Shown piece by piece: positions 9,498 to 46,219 of a stretch of 64,000 bases of DNA (its first letter is position 1; every line of letters starts with the position of its first letter). The position numbers and the translations under genes were made by a program. The notes under the pieces are model-generated. The model was not told the DNA's origin and ran no database searches. It saw only the letters and a list, made by a program, of their open reading frames with translations. The DNA comes from a bacterium (GTDB taxonomy: Bacteria; SZUA-182; DTGQ01; JAFGSM01): contig JBLIRP010000002.1 in NCBI GenBank assembly GCA_049472355.1, forward strand, positions 35,252-99,251. Direction: 5' to 3'.

Positions 9498-9586
9498 TTA
9501 AACTGCCCCGCCGCAAGCAGCGGAGCATTAAATCAAATTTTTTCGGGTCGCTCCAAGGGGCGGGAATTAAACGCGCAGAGATTAAA
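9498..9586. repeat. Degenerate REP/MITE-like element
   Basis: TTAAACTGCCCCGCCGCAAGCAGCGG...CCAAGGGGCGGGAATTAAACGCGCAGAGATTAAA: GC-rich hairpins in AT-rich DNA, recalled as an IS200/605-associated type of small repeat. Confidence 0.4.
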
Positions 9587-9657
9587 TGTGCATCACATTT
9601 TTGTGAATTATCCATAATTTTAAAAAACTTTGGCCTTCAAGAAGAAAGAGTCAATGT

Positions 9658-10656
9658 ATGAAGACAATAATATTTGTTGGATTTATTTTATTAGGATTTA
9701 TCCCAATCATTATTATTTTAAATCTTTTTCTTTACAAGCTCTATCATAATTTTGCCGAAAAATCATTCGAAAATAACAATTGTATCGTTCTTACAAATGA
9801 GAAAATATGTGATGTTCTTGAAAATTGCAGTCCTTCGAAATCAATTATGATTTTTAAGTCTGCAATTTGTGACAATTGTGAAGTTGAAGGTTTGAGATAT
9901 TACACAAAGTATCCGTTTGGGTCCAATATTGTTACGGCTCATGATAATCATAGAAGAGCGATTATTGCCTTTAACATTGGGCAGATGCTTTCAAAAGGAA
10001 AATTAGATCATGATGATATGAATTTATGTGCCGATATTCTCATCTGTTTAACGAATTATACAAAAGAGACTTACTACACGCAGCTTTTTGCATGGCAAAG
10101 CTTAGTTAATTTGTTTTATTTTCAAAAAGAGGCATTACTTGATCGTATCACCATTGATTATATAAAAGCCAGTATTACAAGAAATTTTCAGACAGGTATC
10201 GGGCCTATTAAATTTATTTTTGATATCAAAGCCCATAAAAGTATGAAAAAGAATTCAGAGGACTTTATCAAGGAAATAATACTGTTTGCTATAAGACATG
10301 CAGCGATGCCTCTGCGTGCGCTTTTGGTGTTCAAATTGAATAAAAGTCCTCATTTTGACCAGACTCAAAAGACCGAATATATGAAAAATTTGCCCAAGAA
10401 TCGCGAATTTGAAAGGTTTTTAATGCAGATGAAGGTTCTATCCTTTGGTTTCGCTCGGGAGGAATTAGAGGAAGGGATAAAAAATCTTGGTTTGCAGCCG
10501 CCCCCATATTCCAGTAAAACGACTGAAGGGGAGATCGTCCAACTTTTACTCAAAGATTTCATTGAAGAGATCTACGTGCCTGTATCCTATTTGATGCACA
10601 ATTATGATCGCTGGGATATACCGAGGCATCAGTCGGGAGATTTCTTATGGTATTAG
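9658..10656 (+). CDS. Unrecognised membrane-anchored protein, paralog 1
   Basis: N-terminal TM helix; colinear with 33784-34779 along its whole length. Confidence 0.85.
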   Translation: MKTIIFVGFILLGFIPIIIILNLFLYKLYHNFAEKSFENNNCIVLTNEKICDVLENCSPSKSIMIFKSAICDNCEVEGLRYYTKYPFGSNIVTAHDNHRRAIIAFNIGQMLSKGKLDHDDMNLCADILICLTNYTKETYYTQLFAWQSLVNLFYFQKEALLDRITIDYIKASITRNFQTGIGPIKFIFDIKAHKSMKKNSEDFIKEIILFAIRHAAMPLRALLVFKLNKSPHFDQTQKTEYMKNLPKNREFERFLMQMKVLSFGFAREELEEGIKNLGLQPPPYSSKTTEGEIVQLLLKDFIEEIYVPVSYLMHNYDRWDIPRHQSGDFLWY

Positions 10657-16878: not shown

Positions 16879-18159
16879 TTAATGTACGCCTAATTCTTCC
16901 TTGAAATAAAACAGACTCAGCATAACAAAGACCAAGGTCTGTATAATCGCGAAAAGGACATCCATGCAGAAGATCATAAATGGAATAAACAAGGGAACTA
17001 CAAAATAATATCTCTTGATTGCAACGTCAGTAACCATCGAAAGCACACTATGCTCGCCAAATATATTACCAAAAAGTCGCAGTGAAAGTGAAAGAAGTCT
17101 TGCTCCATTATCAACAAGATGCAGCGCAATGAGGAACAAAACAATTATTTTTACAGGAGCCTGTTTTAAGATCCCGAAGGCTATGTTTAATAATTTTGAT
17201 ATAGGCATCCAAACAGCGGATAAAATCTTTTTATGAAAAGTTAAAGCCCTATTCAAATACCGTAAAATAAAGAAAACAATCAAAATAAGTGAATACATAC
17301 TGACGATATTAACGATTACGGTATGCTTGAAGGGTATAAAAAGAATGAACATGATGCCGATACACATAAGCAATGTGCCAATGCCGTAAAAAATCGAATA
17401 TTTGACGAATGAAGCGTCCTCCCCGTCTTCCAATCCCGAGATCCTCAGGAAAAAGCCGACCATGGACTCCGCAAGACACTGAATTCCCCCTGGAACATCA
17501 TCTCTCTGTAGCCTTGATCGTATCCAAAAACCGAATGCCAGCAATAAAACGGTCGCCGCCACACAATAGACAGCCATCAGTTGAAATGGCAAGGATAATA
17601 ATACGGCAATATTATCGATCAAATAGAGAATCAAGAATGGAATCACGAAGAGCTTCCACATGAAGGAACCTTTTTTGGACTGCGTCCTTGAGCCTTGCCC
17701 CTCATGCCTAAAAACCTCTTCCTCATCCGAGGCCTCTTTTTTCCCAAGCCCTGGGATTGGGTCCAGCCATAATTTGGCCGCCTTTTTGGGTCCATTTAAT
17801 TTTATATTGTAATACTGTAAGCCGATGACAACGATCAAGGCCAATGCAAAGGTGTTGCTCCAATCACTGGTTGGCGGATGTGCATGAGGAATTATGAGAA
17901 AAAAATTGGAGATTAAGATAAATAGAACAAAGGTACCCAGAAACGGAAGTAAGTGAGCCAGCTTTTCCTGCCCCAGCTCCGTCCTTATAATGTTGTCCAG
18001 GGATTCTACCAGAACCTCGGCAATATTTTGAACTGAGCCGGGCGCGCCATCCTTTTGCCTGTTTTTGATCGCTAAATACGAAAAGATGAGAAGAATTGCC
18101 GATGTAATTGAACAATAGATTATTTCATAGATCCACGTTAAACCAAAATGAACATGCAT
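16879..18159 (-). CDS. atpB: F0 a subunit, enlarged (426 aa) by internal duplication
   Basis: PG.VQN.AE, PPTSD, LSLSLRLFGNIFGEH (essential Arg), IQTLVF. Confidence 0.92.
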   Translation of the reverse strand: MHVHFGLTWIYEIIYCSITSAILLIFSYLAIKNRQKDGAPGSVQNIAEVLVESLDNIIRTELGQEKLAHLLPFLGTFVLFILISNFFLIIPHAHPPTSDWSNTFALALIVVIGLQYYNIKLNGPKKAAKLWLDPIPGLGKKEASDEEEVFRHEGQGSRTQSKKGSFMWKLFVIPFLILYLIDNIAVLLSLPFQLMAVYCVAATVLLLAFGFWIRSRLQRDDVPGGIQCLAESMVGFFLRISGLEDGEDASFVKYSIFYGIGTLLMCIGIMFILFIPFKHTVIVNIVSMYSLILIVFFILRYLNRALTFHKKILSAVWMPISKLLNIAFGILKQAPVKIIVLFLIALHLVDNGARLLSLSLRLFGNIFGEHSVLSMVTDVAIKRYYFVVPLFIPFMIFCMDVLFAIIQTLVFVMLSLFYFKEELGVH

Positions 18160-18270
18160 TGCTTACTTCTATACCCTTTCTTTTATGCCGCTTGCGAGCC
18201 TTGTATGCGATTTTTGGTAAACGATTTTTATTCATATCGCCTTGAAATTCTCTCTTAAAAAACGATTGTA

Positions 18271-18299
18271 ATGATATCAATAATACCGTTTTTTGTCAA
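18271..18299 (-). promoter_or_regulatory. Sigma70-type promoter of the atp operon
   Basis: Minus strand TTGACA-17bp-TATCAT about 110 bp upstream of atpB. Confidence 0.75.
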
Positions 18300-18420
18300 C
18301 ACCCAAATGAACCAATTCCAAAACATAATCACGTCATTCCTTTTCCCCTCATCGCATACATTTGAGGAGGATTGATCATTCCATAGGATTTCAATACCTA
18401 TTTTTATATAATATTAAATT

Positions 18421-18965
18421 CCAACTGCCCGGCGTCCTCACAGCGATTTGTACCGTCACCGGTGCCAAGGCATCATCCCTATCAGCGGCCCCTTCCCCTC
18501 ACGCAGGGGGCTTTCTGACAGGTCGCAGCATGCGACTATCATCCCGGATTCCTTTGCATGAGCGATCCCTGCACGGCCTCTCCCCATGAATATCCGTTTC
18601 GTGCAGGTCCTCACGTTGTCAAGCCCTGCACTCCGTTCTCATACGTCCATCACCTCTTACGATCATTTACCAATCGACCATTACGAACCAGCGCCTTTTC
18701 CCGCACACCAGCTCAACCGCTTTCCTCTGGTGCGCAGGTCTTATGCGTAAAACATTCTTATGTAAGAATTCGTACGCCTCTTCCGGAAACCTTGGATTCG
18801 CCGATCGTATACGATATTTTGCATCCGCACAGATCCCCGTCGCTGGACTACTTCGAATTTGCCCTTTTGGCCTGATATCCGACCTGTCCAAAAAAATGAC
18901 GCCTAAAGGAACGGTCGGGACCATCCATACCTTCAGGGACGGGAAATCTGAACCACGCACCATTT
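18421..18965 (-). ncRNA. Putative large structured non-coding RNA, family not recognised
   Basis: GC-rich patch in AT-rich flanks with at least 8 stems that use G-U pairs on the minus strand and a GUGA tetraloop; no convincing ORF. Confidence 0.55.
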
Positions 18966-19000
18966 TATCCCCTTCGATATAATTTTTATTATTTTAAAAG

Positions 19001-19049
19001 GTAGCATGATTGCTACCTTTTTTCAGACTCTAAAAAGCACGCCTGCGAC
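19001..19049. promoter_or_regulatory. Tandem enhancer sites for the rightward sigma54 promoter
   Basis: GTAGCA-TGAT-TGCTAC (19001-19016) and AAAGCA-CGCC-TGCGAC (19034-19049), 33 bp apart. Confidence 0.6.
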
Positions 19050-19131
19050 TTGCACCCTGCAGTGAAAATTTCATATCATTGTAACCATATGTTTTTTAAC
19101 GTATTTTTAGCTTTGTAGAGATTATTGTTAT

Positions 19132-19481: not shown

Positions 19482-19940
19482 ATGTACAGAGATAAAGATT
19501 CAACCAATAAGGCTATATTCTATACCAGGGCTGTTAACAGCCCGAAGGATACGTGGTCGATCGATACCCAGATCAAAAGGGCGCAATCGTACGCGAAATC
19601 CACGGGTTTAAATCTGCAGGAAATATTCGTCGATGAGACGCAGGTCCCCATATACTATATAATAAAGGATAGGGCCTCCGTATCATCTCAAAAATCCTTC
19701 CAGCCCAAGAGGCTTCTTATGCCCGATTTAGTTCCGGTTTATCAAGAGGCTATGACACAACTCATTGAAATGACAGCTTTTCAGAGGATGCTCGCGTACA
19801 TTCGTTCGAATCCGGTCAATGTACTTCTGATTTCAAAGCTTGAGATCTTGTTCGCAAACATGAAGGATGCATTCAGCTTCGTTGACAATGAGCTAAATCC
19901 CCGGCGAATCGCCCTTAAGACCCTTGGTGAGATTAATTGA
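19482..19940 (+). CDS. Serine-recombinase (resolvase) catalytic-domain homolog, apparently inactive
   Basis: AIFYTR...SIDTQI...IFVDE...FQRML...VLLISKL pattern; YxRxS reads YTRAV and DRLxR reads EILFA; SD GAGG. Confidence 0.75.
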   Translation: MYRDKDSTNKAIFYTRAVNSPKDTWSIDTQIKRAQSYAKSTGLNLQEIFVDETQVPIYYIIKDRASVSSQKSFQPKRLLMPDLVPVYQEAMTQLIEMTAFQRMLAYIRSNPVNVLLISKLEILFANMKDAFSFVDNELNPRRIALKTLGEIN

Positions 19941-33783: not shown

Positions 33784-34779
33784 TCATACCCATAAAAAAT
33801 TTGTCTCATAGGCTCTGACATCATTCGCATTAAAGCTATGAAGCATATAGGAGGCTGGAACATAGAGTTCTTCTATAAAATATTTCGTTAAAATTTCCAC
33901 TATCTCGCCCTCGGTTGTTTTATGGGAGTATGGCGGTGATTGTAACCCAAGGTTGGTCAATCCCTCACTCAGTTCCTCTTTTGTAAAACCTCGGGACAAA
34001 TTATTCATATGCTCCAAAAAACTCTTTAGCTTAAGATCATTGGGTATTATTTTCATAAAATTCGATTTTTCAGAATGTTTAAAATAGGGGCTTTTGATAA
34101 GCTTGAATATCAAGAGGGCCACGAGAGGTGTGCTGCAATTCCCCAAGGTATAACAGATGGTATCGTTGATCAGAGAAACCGTTTTTGTATCAAGCCCCTT
34201 AACCTGCTTAATATCAAAAATGAACTTAACTACCCCGATTCCTGACATAAAATCCTTTGATATGAGAAGCCTAAGGGTATCCTGTCCCACCATTTCCATT
34301 AATGCGTTTTTTTTAAAGCGCATCAATCTGCTCAAGCTGTTCCACACGATAAGCTGCGTGTAGTGCTTCTCATTGCAGCTTCTTGCCAGGGTAAGAAGGA
34401 TGTCACTGCAACACTCCAGATCTCTATTTTGGATGACTTGTGCCGTGAGCATCACCCCTATCGTGTGAGCGATGAAGGCCTTGCGATGATTGTCATGTGC
34501 AGTAGTAATTTTTGAGCCAAAGGCAAACTTCGTGTAATATCGCACGCCGTTTACTTCTGAATGATCACATAGGGCAGACCTGAAAACCTGAAGTGACTCG
34601 GATAAATCCCCCCCTTTTAGGATATCTCCTATCCTTCTTCTGGTCAAGACTATATGGCCTCTGTTTTCGAATGTCCTTTCTTTTAAGAGACCATAAATGT
34701 AATACACAAAAAGGGATAGGATGCCTATGGCCGGGATGAGTGCAATTACCGCTAATCCAATAACCAATGCCGACAGCAT
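33784..34779 (-). CDS. Unrecognised membrane-anchored protein, paralog 2
   Basis: Colinear with 9658-10656; start MLSAL (ATG 34779) chosen because it gives 331 aa versus 332 aa for paralog 1. Confidence 0.85.
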   Translation of the reverse strand: MLSALVIGLAVIALIPAIGILSLFVYYIYGLLKERTFENRGHIVLTRRRIGDILKGGDLSESLQVFRSALCDHSEVNGVRYYTKFAFGSKITTAHDNHRKAFIAHTIGVMLTAQVIQNRDLECCSDILLTLARSCNEKHYTQLIVWNSLSRLMRFKKNALMEMVGQDTLRLLISKDFMSGIGVVKFIFDIKQVKGLDTKTVSLINDTICYTLGNCSTPLVALLIFKLIKSPYFKHSEKSNFMKIIPNDLKLKSFLEHMNNLSRGFTKEELSEGLTNLGLQSPPYSHKTTEGEIVEILTKYFIEELYVPASYMLHSFNANDVRAYETNFLWV

Positions 34780-35028
34780 CCATGTAATCCTTTTTCTAAA
34801 AACATCCGGGATGCAAATGAATGGGAATAAATTCGCCAAAAAGTAATTTAATGATATAATCAAGGAATAAATTGCTCATATCATGATTAGATCATAAATC
34901 AAAAAAACCCTCTTTTCAAATATAAGAATTGAAATGCGAAAAAAATCTGGTATACTATATTTTAGCAAATATTATTCACAATAATAATTTTTCATTTTCT
35001 ATTTCAATATGGTGAAAGGAGAATAATC

Positions 35029-44026: not shown

Positions 44027-45469
44027 TCAATCGGGCATCAGGCGTTCCATGATCCGTTCCCCGGTCAGCACCCCGGCCGCCTTGTCAATGGCGAACCGCG
44101 CCTCCATGACATCGTAGTTGAGGGTGGCGAGGTCGGTTTTCGCCTTCACCAGCAGAAGGTTGGCATCGAGCACATCCAGGTTCGTTGCCTCGCCCTCCTG
44201 ATACCTGAGTTTCACGATCCTCATGTTCTCCTGGGCATGCTCGATCTGTTTATCGATGGCCTTCAAGGTCGCCAGGAGGTCATCTAGACGGAGAAATGCT
44301 TGTACTACCTCCAGCCGTACCTGTTTCCTCTGATCGATTTCCTGAAGACCGGAAAGGGTATGATCGTGGCGAGCCCTCCTCAGCCGCACCATCCTGGTCC
44401 CCCCCTCGAACAGGGGGAGCGAGATGCTCCCCCCTACCGTGACGGTTTCGTCGTCAGGGAAGAAGTCCTCGCCGCTCTTTTCATATTCACCGAACAGGGT
44501 GACCATCGGAAGAAAATCCCTCTTGGCCAGGGTAACCCCCATACCGGCCAATTCCTTTGATTTCACGGCGGCACGGTAGTCCGGCCTGCGTTCGTACGCC
44601 CGGTTGATGGACTCCTCCATCTCCCCTTCCTGTTCAAGGATCCCGGCAACGGGAAGGACGGTAAAGGGACCCTCCTCCCAGAAGATGACCTTCCCCAGAT
44701 TCTCATAGCTCAGGGAAAGGGCCTTCTCTGCATGAATAAGATCGCTTTGCGCATTGGCAAGCTCCATTTCCGCACGCAAGACGTCATTTTTTGCCACCTG
44801 GCCCACCTCGAACCGCCGCCTTGTAACCCTGAGGTGTTCGGTGAGCCGTTCCCTCGCTTCCCTGGCAATGGCCAGCATCTCATCCGCCTTGAGCGTATTG
44901 AGGTATGCGACGACAACCCCGAACAGGACATTCTGCGTCACCGTCTCATGCTCCAACTCAGATATCTCGATGCTCAGATGCGCCTGCGGCTTCAGCACAA
45001 GGTACTTACCCTGGTCAAACAGGGGTTGCTGGAGGGAGACACTGAACCCGTAATTATCATCGGGGAAAAATTGGGCCAGGAGCGTGTCCCCATCCTGATG
45101 GGTGTATTCAAGACTCGTAGAGAGCCTCGGGAGCATCGATGCACGTGCCTCCGGTATCCGGAGCCTGGACTGGAGCACCCGTTCCCGGGCGGCGTTGACG
45201 GAGGGATTTTGCTCCAATGCGATATCCAGGCACTCGATCAGCGAGAGGGGTCTCACCGCCTGGGCACGGCACCGGGAAGGAAAAGGAACCGAAAGGGTGA
45301 GGATTGCAGCTAACACCGCAATGGTAAGGATACACCCCTGCGTGCAGACATCATATCTCGATTTCATGGTAGACTCCCCGCAGTTGCATGCGGTAATTCC
45401 CTTTGTCAACCTTTGGTCCTGTTTGAGGGCGGACATATTTACTCCGCCCTCAAGCATACAAAGCCACAA
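44027..45469 (-). CDS. TolC-family outer-membrane efflux protein
   Basis: ALEQNP, QPLFD.G, RFEVG....DVLRA, RYQEG.AT.LDVLDA; start uncertain (probably near 45368). Confidence 0.9.
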   Translation of the reverse strand: MWLCMLEGGVNMSALKQDQRLTKGITACNCGESTMKSRYDVCTQGCILTIAVLAAILTLSVPFPSRCRAQAVRPLSLIECLDIALEQNPSVNAARERVLQSRLRIPEARASMLPRLSTSLEYTHQDGDTLLAQFFPDDNYGFSVSLQQPLFDQGKYLVLKPQAHLSIEISELEHETVTQNVLFGVVVAYLNTLKADEMLAIAREARERLTEHLRVTRRRFEVGQVAKNDVLRAEMELANAQSDLIHAEKALSLSYENLGKVIFWEEGPFTVLPVAGILEQEGEMEESINRAYERRPDYRAAVKSKELAGMGVTLAKRDFLPMVTLFGEYEKSGEDFFPDDETVTVGGSISLPLFEGGTRMVRLRRARHDHTLSGLQEIDQRKQVRLEVVQAFLRLDDLLATLKAIDKQIEHAQENMRIVKLRYQEGEATNLDVLDANLLLVKAKTDLATLNYDVMEARFAIDKAAGVLTGERIMERLMPD

Positions 45470-45517
45470 TCCGAATCACCGCAGTTGCAGCATACCCCTG
45501 AAAAGGGTATCATCAGT

Positions 45518-46219
45518 ATGATCATGAGAAATACGTCGGAAGAACATCATAAGATCATAACGGAAATTAAGGAGTTCCTCAAGGCACACCACGAGGCCGG
45601 GCTTGAGTGGACAAGATTGCCGGAACGGTGCCTGTGTCCGGCAATTCTCGCAGCATTGCAGGAATCAGCCCGTCAATGCACCCGGTGCCGCCTCTCGGCA
45701 TCCAGGACACGGGTGGTATTCGGGGAGGGAGATCCCCGGGCACGCCTGCTCTTCATCGGCGAGGCCCCGGGTGCTGAAGAGGATCGAACGGGCCGCCCCT
45801 TTATCGGGAGGGCGGGCGAGCTGCTCACGAAGATCATAGAGGCAATCGGCCTTTCCAGGGACCAGGTCTATATCTCCAGTGTCGTCAAGTGCAGGCCCCC
45901 GGAGAACAGGGCCCCTGAACAGGATGAAATCGCAGCCTGTAAACCGTTCCTGATCAAACAGATCCAGGCGATACAGCCGGCGGTCATCTGCACCCTGGGG
46001 ACGGTTTCCACCCAGGTCATCCTCAATACGCGTGATCCCATCACCAAATGCCGGGGGAAGTTTTACGATGTCCACGGTATCCGGGTGATGCCCACATTTC
46101 ACCCCGCATACCTTCTGCGCAATCCGAAGGACAAAAAACTGGTGTGGGAGGATATGCAGCGGATTCAGGCGCTCTATCAGACACTCGTGTCAGATCGCAC
46201 GGATTCCCGGGAAGCCTGA
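45518..46219 (+). CDS. Family 4 uracil-DNA glycosylase
   Basis: C..C.L, IGEAPG.EED..G.PF.G.AG, KCRPP.NR.P, TFHPAYLLR. Confidence 0.95.
   Translation: MIMRNTSEEHHKIITEIKEFLKAHHEAGLEWTRLPERCLCPAILAALQESARQCTRCRLSASRTRVVFGEGDPRARLLFIGEAPGAEEDRTGRPFIGRAGELLTKIIEAIGLSRDQVYISSVVKCRPPENRAPEQDEIAACKPFLIKQIQAIQPAVICTLGTVSTQVILNTRDPITKCRGKFYDVHGIRVMPTFHPAYLLRNPKDKKLVWEDMQRIQALYQTLVSDRTDSREA

Follow-up and report, generated by a model that had tools for sequence, protein, structure and literature searches.

Few large bacterial RNAs fall outside the known families, and time and again those that do have proved to be ribozymes or RNA machines. The OLE, ROOL and GOLLD RNAs are 500–800 nt long, consist of multiple domains and contain no open reading frame (ORF), the families rest on many homologs and on covariation, and ROOL and GOLLD occur in phages or prophages near tRNAs (PMC12286853; PMC9723947). 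Bacterial group II introns, in turn, are reported to decay to intergenic 5′ fragments of domains I–III that measure 487–652 nt, and FRE652 of Sinorhizobium is ~89% identical to its parent (PMC4181065).

The block described here is a 545-nt stretch of the minus strand within a 64,000-nt window (the whole stretch of DNA analyzed). It is a non-coding singleton with sharp boundaries, an RNA-like character and moderate folding, and a low-GC island surrounds it. It lies in the 1,322-bp gap between atpB and a divergent resolvase-like gene (Table 1). The block is real DNA that is identical in sequencing runs from separate studies. A contig of run X11 covers 18344–19063, across both ends, with zero differences; contigs of run X9, from a separate study, cover 17848–18516 and 18535–19009, also with zero differences, and neither variants nor joints that skip the block were present in the four DNA runs compared. 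Contigs of a related organism (~81–83%) match atpB and the Fe–S gene and none falls on the block, which proves nothing.

The GC content of the block is 53.6%, versus 32.6% and 36.8% in its flanks, with a sharp step at each end. Its best 150 nt reach 61% GC, and this value is at most 50% in the seven other island gaps longer than 150 bp. The minus strand is rich in G and in purines (G183, A136, U117, C109). A coding model trained on 1,091 long ORFs scored the best frames of the block at −44.6 and −54.8, RNase P RNA at −51.3 and three true genes at +14.5, −16.5 and −10.2; read through stops in six frames, the block matched none of the NCBIfam families. Its non-coding character is confirmed. The surrounding island extends over ~28 kb at 37–47% GC in a genome of 54% GC (87.5% complete), and the block appears to have been acquired as a unit rather than conserved vertically.

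The island (window ~8000–36000) contains the atp operon, Fe–S and cytochrome genes, a vWA/AAA pair and a gene for a 1,276-aa PAS sigma54-type activator, and two ORFs near its ends (9658–10656 and 33784–34863) look paralogous by eye. An intergenic stretch of ~90 bp at window ~9500–9590 has many 74–85% matches in each of the five close relatives, frequently more than one in a genome and where contigs end; it is a dispersed repeat, perhaps an IS end.

Table 1. Features of the block and its surroundings (window coordinates; stems and domains are predicted).
Feature	Position	Strand	Basis or remark
Candidate structured RNA or RNA remnant, GC-rich non-coding block	18421..18965	minus	GC, composition, no codon periodicity
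98-codon open frame, judged not a gene	18667..18963	minus	codon periodicity, homolog searches
5′ domain, predicted three-way junction	18818..18960	minus	begins GUGCG at 18960
5′ domain stems	outer 18950-18938/18841-18830; hairpin 18937-18930/18909-18902; 18890-18886/18848-18844	minus	predicted; mean pair probability of outer stem 0.82–0.83
Junction strand, candidate long-range pseudoknot	18892..18904	minus	complementary to 18480-18468; 13 pairs including G-U; duplex −15.1 kcal/mol
Interrupted hairpin GCGUA..AUUCUU/AAGAAU..UACGC	18745..18777	minus	mean pair probability 0.96 (GCGUA/UACGC) and 0.94 (AUUCUU/AAGAAU)
12-bp hairpin, 15-nt purine-rich loop	18700..18738	minus	mean pair probability 0.99
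Long interrupted hairpin	18556..18644	minus	closing stem probability 0.83; z −3.1
Two 3′ hairpins between GGGAUGAU copies (18545-18538, 18479-18472)	18478..18536	minus	mean pair probability 0.83 (GUCGCA/UGCGAC) and 0.42 (CUGUCAG/CUGAUAG)
Lone TATAAT, no −35 match, just outside block	18407..18412	plus	possible plus-strand transcript start
Perfect 11-bp hairpin, A/T-tract flanked, terminator-like both ways	18996..19021		6 U plus, 4 U minus
Sigma70-type atp promoter	18271..18299	minus	11/12 consensus match
atpB	start 18159	minus	block ~260 nt above, same strand
Stand-alone resolvase-like domain, divergent neighbor	19482..19940	plus	PF00239, E 9e-6

Neither sequence nor covariance searches found a relative of the block. 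By DNA search it is single-copy in its own genome and had 0 matches in 60 other genomes; among 19 phylum relatives (the phylum set holds 20 genomes), three gave matches of 24–34 nt that proved unrelated on inspection, and a search of 400 genomes returned no homolog and a single 24-nt match in one of them. Phage records yielded none, and plasmid records yielded seven matches of 26–31 nt, all in the AT-rich flanks. Of three single-sequence covariance models, R1 gave two weak matches, poorly aligned and scoring 26 and 21 bits, in 150 genomes, R2 none in 150 and R3 none in 149. With laxer filters, R1 and R2 matched in 0 of 5 genomes, and R3 gave one 10-bit match in seven neighbor loci. Five motif scans of viral contigs returned 19, 21, 9, 5 and 0 loci, and 0 of these 54 extend beyond the pattern; frame-based scans, with six 24-nt patterns each, returned 601 and 184 candidate stretches in GTDB and 14 and 8 in viral contigs, none of them confirmed. 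By a rough estimate the frame-based scans exclude only near-identical copies, and the collection-wide scans exclude only close copies of the block. A metagenome scan with an atpB query found two short contigs with no upstream DNA.

DNA search and the three covariance models did not find the block in 19 of 19 phylum relatives, four of them from the same genus (63–97% complete), and an RNase P RNA is found in all 19. Two genomes that share this atp operon are uninformative on the presence of the block because of contig breaks: the G001 contig ends within atpB, and that of G005 begins only 186 bp above the gene. In G006, which belongs to another family and has no full atp operon at the locus, a resolvase-like gene is divergent from atpE/atpF-like genes across a gap of ~375 bp with 30–33% GC and no such block. 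At that locus the atpE-like and atpF-like genes stand alone, with the rest of the atp operon absent, and the resolvase-like gene also sits between them and an Fe–S/response-regulator gene.

The resolvase-like protein encoded beside the block has eight relatives at 52–80% identity and a ~40-residue insertion; the 80%-identical relative is represented by six contigs, the longest of 30 kb. The catalytic motif of serine recombinases is usually Y-x-R-x-S. The corresponding site reads YTRAV, YTRVV or YTKV in this protein and its eight relatives, and the usual serine motif is absent. Because the altered motif is shared throughout, the sequences point to a conserved family that is probably catalytically dead.

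A group II intron origin, with the block as the 5′ half, was suggested by its initial GUGCG, its length and a few look-alikes of intron motifs. The GUGCG at 18960 is one of three GUGYG occurrences in the block, and the matching AAC..GGGA closing strand was not found. The introns used for comparison carry a 5′ GGUG..AAGUCC hairpin, a RUAGUA loop and an AAC..GGGA end of domain I, and the block is without all three. The domain V/VI model RF00029 was unmatched in the window and found one copy elsewhere in the same genome, and the group-II D1D4 Rfam models were unmatched in the block at E values up to 10; in a control, 6 of 8 introns matched Rfam at gathering score and 2 of 8 escaped. No intron-encoded reverse transcriptase was found by six-frame family matching or among the neighboring ORFs. 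Pairwise scores were raised for one of eight introns (39 versus 26.8 ± 3.3), and when 30 further intron loci were compared with the block, each stayed at or below the score of its best shuffle.

Four profile tests of group II membership ended at shuffle level. A class C profile, built from connected clusters only (seven unclustered loci were left out), did not report the block. An E/F-type profile, for which 5 of 25 loci passed the motif filter, scored −0.2 bits, with 107 of 300 shuffles as good, and a CL-type profile scored 0.0 bits, with 35 of 500 shuffles as good. A profile of ten sequences for domain III (RUAGUA/GAAG loop) gave 3.6 bits, with 67 of 1,000 shuffles as good; in its control, 10 of 10 left-out true domains scored 6.1–27 bits and CL-type domains went undetected. 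Sensitivity across classes is limited, the E/F-type profile detecting two of six introns of other classes, and the negative result therefore applies to the classes sampled. An odd group II class could escape these profiles.

Several group II-like sequences were encountered elsewhere. A locus on another contig of the same genome (L107) is a CL-type group II intron cut by the contig end, and L181, on a further contig, is a class C-type 5′ part; both are unlike the block. In two order-level relatives, group II-like 5′ regions below the Rfam gathering cut-off (L156 in G006 and L158 in G010) begin with GGGAGC and not GUGYG. The sequence GGGTGCAAGTC at 19059–19047 (minus), 90 nt above the block, resembles a hairpin at the 5′ end of the group II introns used for comparison, probably by chance; the site shares 13 of 17 bases with 18544–18528. 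The hairpin arm 18945–18930 has what we take to be a weak resemblance to an IS200/IS605 end, and Rfam gives no match there.

Our best explanation, held tentatively, is that the block is an orphan folded-RNA scaffold from a mobile element, of no assigned class and now probably inactive. We rank it, by a small margin, ahead of a functional RNA, chance-folding DNA, an atp leader, a plus-strand RNA and a protein. A mobile origin would account for the block as follows. An element may have delivered it into the low-GC island, at the AT-rich gap that separates the atp operon from the divergent resolvase-like gene; with its protein gene and catalytic end since lost, the block would now probably be decaying, much as self-splicing retroelements leave 5′-half remnants. 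Read-through transcription would yield an RNA that folds into four domains, could at most damp transcription into atpB and would not be catalytic. The sharp GC steps inside a low-GC island, the failure to find the block in 19 of 19 relatives, the blockless gap in G006 and the missing promoter–terminator pair on the minus strand are consistent with this origin, and the length and GUGCG start fit the reported decay of group II introns to 5′ fragments (PMC4181065). Some parts fold strongly and the 3′ quarter shows no folding signal (the 3′ 130 nt have a z score of only −0.45), as expected of a decaying scaffold. Against a mobile scaffold stand the failure to assign an element class by group II profiles or Rfam, the single copy, the lack of a visible target-site duplication or terminal repeats, and neighboring ORFs that include neither a transposase nor a reverse transcriptase. 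The breaks in G001 and G005 also remove the informative comparison, and G006 is of another family and without the full operon at that locus.

A functional, free-standing large noncoding RNA is somewhat unlikely. It would belong to an undescribed, narrowly distributed family, an orphan like OLE, ROOL and GOLLD, with four domains tied together by pairing between a 5′ junction strand and the second GGGAUGAU, and it would act as a scaffold or protein-binding RNA. That the block represents an undescribed ~545-nt four-domain RNA class of a small uncultured sediment lineage, with a junction linker that pairs with the repeated GGGAUGAU and a role as either a free-standing scaffold or a regulator of the ATP synthase operon, is a doubtful possibility. 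The preliminary description may be right in interpreting the block as an RNA gene. Its observation that the block lacks the signatures of RNase P, tmRNA, SRP, OLE, raiA and group II intron domain V was borne out by an Rfam covariance search, with 0 matches at gathering score in the 64 kb; Rfam 15, including OLE, ROOL, GOLLD, raiA and HEARO, gave only sub-threshold, unrelated matches to the block (E 2–10). A literature search, with subscription journals mostly outside its coverage, returned no paper on the motif of the block or on a large RNA above atpB.

None of the individual known RNAs considered was supported as an identity of the block. The RNase P RNA model RF00010 is unmatched in the block, and an ordinary type A copy is present in 19 of 19 relatives; the genome of the block has no RNase P RNA match, yet keeps the protein subunit. 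The flanking sequence from G001 maps 389 bp from the end of a contig of this genome, which also lacks the gene that separates this flank from rnpB. For tmRNA, defined by its tRNA-like domain and tag reading frame (RF00023, ARAGORN), Rfam gave no match in the window, an ordinary copy occurs in three of five close relatives, and only sub-threshold matches of 71–93 nt were found elsewhere in the genome. The contig end, the missing intervening gene and the ordinary RNAs of the relatives make assembly gaps a simpler explanation than a disguised RNase P RNA or tmRNA. A CsrB/RsmZ-type sponge was not supported by motif counts (GGA, 19 versus 16.5 expected, P = 0.24; ANGGA, 7 versus 4.1, P = 0.11), and csrA (PF02599) was not found in the 87.5%-complete genome.

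The predicted anatomy has four parts: a 5′ three-way junction comes first, followed by a pair of firm hairpins, then a long hairpin with interruptions, and finally a 3′ part that is looser. All complementary segments listed in the preliminary description are present on the minus strand, as are its two copies of GGGAUGAU, at 18545 and 18479. In the thermodynamic ensemble six of its stems are supported (Table 1), whereas three are disfavored and lose to competing pairings (CCGACC/GGUCGG, pair probability 0.00; GUGCAGG/CCUGCAC, 0.01; ACCG/CGGU, 0.09). The 5′ junction takes the shape [[][]] in 975 of 1,000 samples, with pair probabilities of 0.82–0.95, and its domain (18950–18830) has a z score of −3.1; the hairpins at 18700–18738 and 18745–18777 together reach −4.9, with 0 of 200 shuffles as good. 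GUGCAGGG also occurs twice (18631 and 18574), on either side of CCUGCAC, which makes alternative pairings possible, each with a stem probability of 0.01. The G-U bias that had been taken to mark the minus strand holds in count (7 G-U and 0 A-C among 96 pairs in 14 stems) and is partly circular, because the stems were picked on that strand, which holds 183 G versus 109 C.

An RNA-like composition without coding signal, as in the RNase P RNAs of relatives, the confident junction and hairpins, the twin motif, the lack of an Rfam match and the identity across separate-study runs all argue for a functional RNA. So does local folding: the mean window z score of −1.44 is inside the range of four RNase P RNAs from relatives (−0.6 to −2.35). 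The whole-length z score argues against it, at −1.53 (8 of 100 shuffles fold as well) versus −1.8 to −4.8 for the same four RNAs, as does the failure of every search to find a homolog. The long-range pairing of 18904–18892 with 18480–18468 can be obtained by chance, since the block has four helices of at least 11 pairs versus a shuffle mean of 2.6 and these are not rarer in shuffles. The earlier suggestion that the RNA is free-standing is unsupported on the minus strand, where the sequence directly upstream has no sigma70 match and that downstream no terminator.

It is unlikely that the block is neutral foreign DNA, an unrecognizable relic never functional as RNA, whose stems are the best that chance offers in a G-rich strand. 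The counts of perfect helices are not above those of shuffles (P = 0.07–0.48 over eight settings), and in 12 of 40 shuffles the number of pairs with probability above 0.8 reaches that of the block. When segments from the first 53.8 kb of the window were ranked, the block came fifth of 99 on the minus strand and about ninth of 198 on both strands, and several ORF-covered segments fold as well; because it is only fifth of 99, part of the folding signal reflects selection by the preliminary description, which chose the stretch for its stems. The best local folding score in the scanned 53.8 kb belongs to window 45000–45900 (mean z of about −1.77, both strands low). On the other side, the mean window z score of the block is below that of 22 of 22 random GC-matched genome segments, the best sub-domain is matched by no shuffle, the minus strand beats the plus strand in six of seven sub-regions, and neither a comparison of one frame with 1.84 billion proteins nor a six-frame comparison with NCBIfam showed any trace of a protein origin. 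The shuffle comparison thus gives moderate support: three minus-strand sub-domains reach −3.1, −4.9 and −3.1, with bounds chosen after seeing the fold, and the whole length reaches only about −1.5. The local signal is real and modest, and 'highly structured' was an overstatement.

Less probable still is a long cis-acting leader or switch of the atp operon, transcribed from a weak upstream promoter (9/12, 19312–19284) in which pairings around CCUGCAC would exclude one another and the hairpin at 19021–18996 would act as an attenuator. The block does share the strand of atpB, alternative pairings are present and a promoter-like site lies upstream. The atp operon, however, has its own near-consensus sigma70 promoter below the block, as had been proposed, promoter-like sites number 4 versus 3.7 expected by chance, and neither an expression platform beside the atpB start nor an Rfam riboswitch match was seen. 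The hairpin, which lies 30 nt upstream of the block and is the sole terminator-like one, was not called by a terminator scan.

A plus-strand transcript of ~605 nt, from the lone TATAAT to the hairpin and six U ending at 19024, is highly improbable. These two elements bracket the block exactly, and the hairpin has no upstream plus-strand gene to terminate; we rate this transcript low because the plus strand is rich in C and its fold is less stable (−147 versus −193 kcal/mol; whole-length z −1.10, 15 of 100 shuffles folding as well). The TATAAT has no −35 match, and such hexamers are common in AT-rich DNA.

Homologs conserving the 98-codon frame, which would have favored a protein over base pairs, were not found. 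The frame matched only itself among 5.8 billion clusters and 1.84 billion protein representatives, with no Pfam family and no usable Atlas match (an Atlas recognition of 1164, short of the 2300 that real families typically reach), and its codon-position χ2 of 5.6 compares with 17.3–35.7 for six real genes measured over an equal length and 4.6 for RNase P. A 98-aa orphan protein with a purine-rich ribosome-binding site and a decayed tail, largely refuted already, is scarcely credible: its ATG lies at the GC boundary after GAAGGGG, and the frame has 3 stops versus 9 and 10 in the other two, but it lacks codon periodicity and relatives, and 5% of shuffles yield an ORF this long.

As it stands, the block is a singleton with moderate folding support and no demonstrated family membership, and it is not yet a discovery. 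Should the block prove to represent an RNA class of its own, at 545 nt, or a long RNA switch acting on the ATP synthase operon, that would be a real addition; an orphan scaffold that escapes the group II and Rfam models would point to an unsampled class of RNA-bearing mobile element.

Among known systems, type A RNase P RNA (RF00010) resembles the block in composition, in being GC-rich within AT-rich flanks and in its range of local folding; the block differs in matching no such model, and the rnpB locus of its genome falls off a contig end. It is like the OLE, ROOL and GOLLD RNAs in size, in its multiple domains, in having no ORF and in a possible long-range pairing; it differs from those families (PMC12286853; PMC9723947) in being a singleton, in lying beside the atp operon rather than in a phage or near tRNAs, and in having no Rfam match at E ≤ 10. 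From FRE652 (PMC4181065) it differs in having no recognizable parent. It is nevertheless like FRE652 and the RF00029 and group-II-D1D4-1 to -7 families in its intergenic position, lack of an ORF and length (~500–650 nt), and it shares with group II 5′-half remnants the absence of domain V, a GUGCG start, a G- and purine-rich strand and a few short look-alikes in a plausible order.
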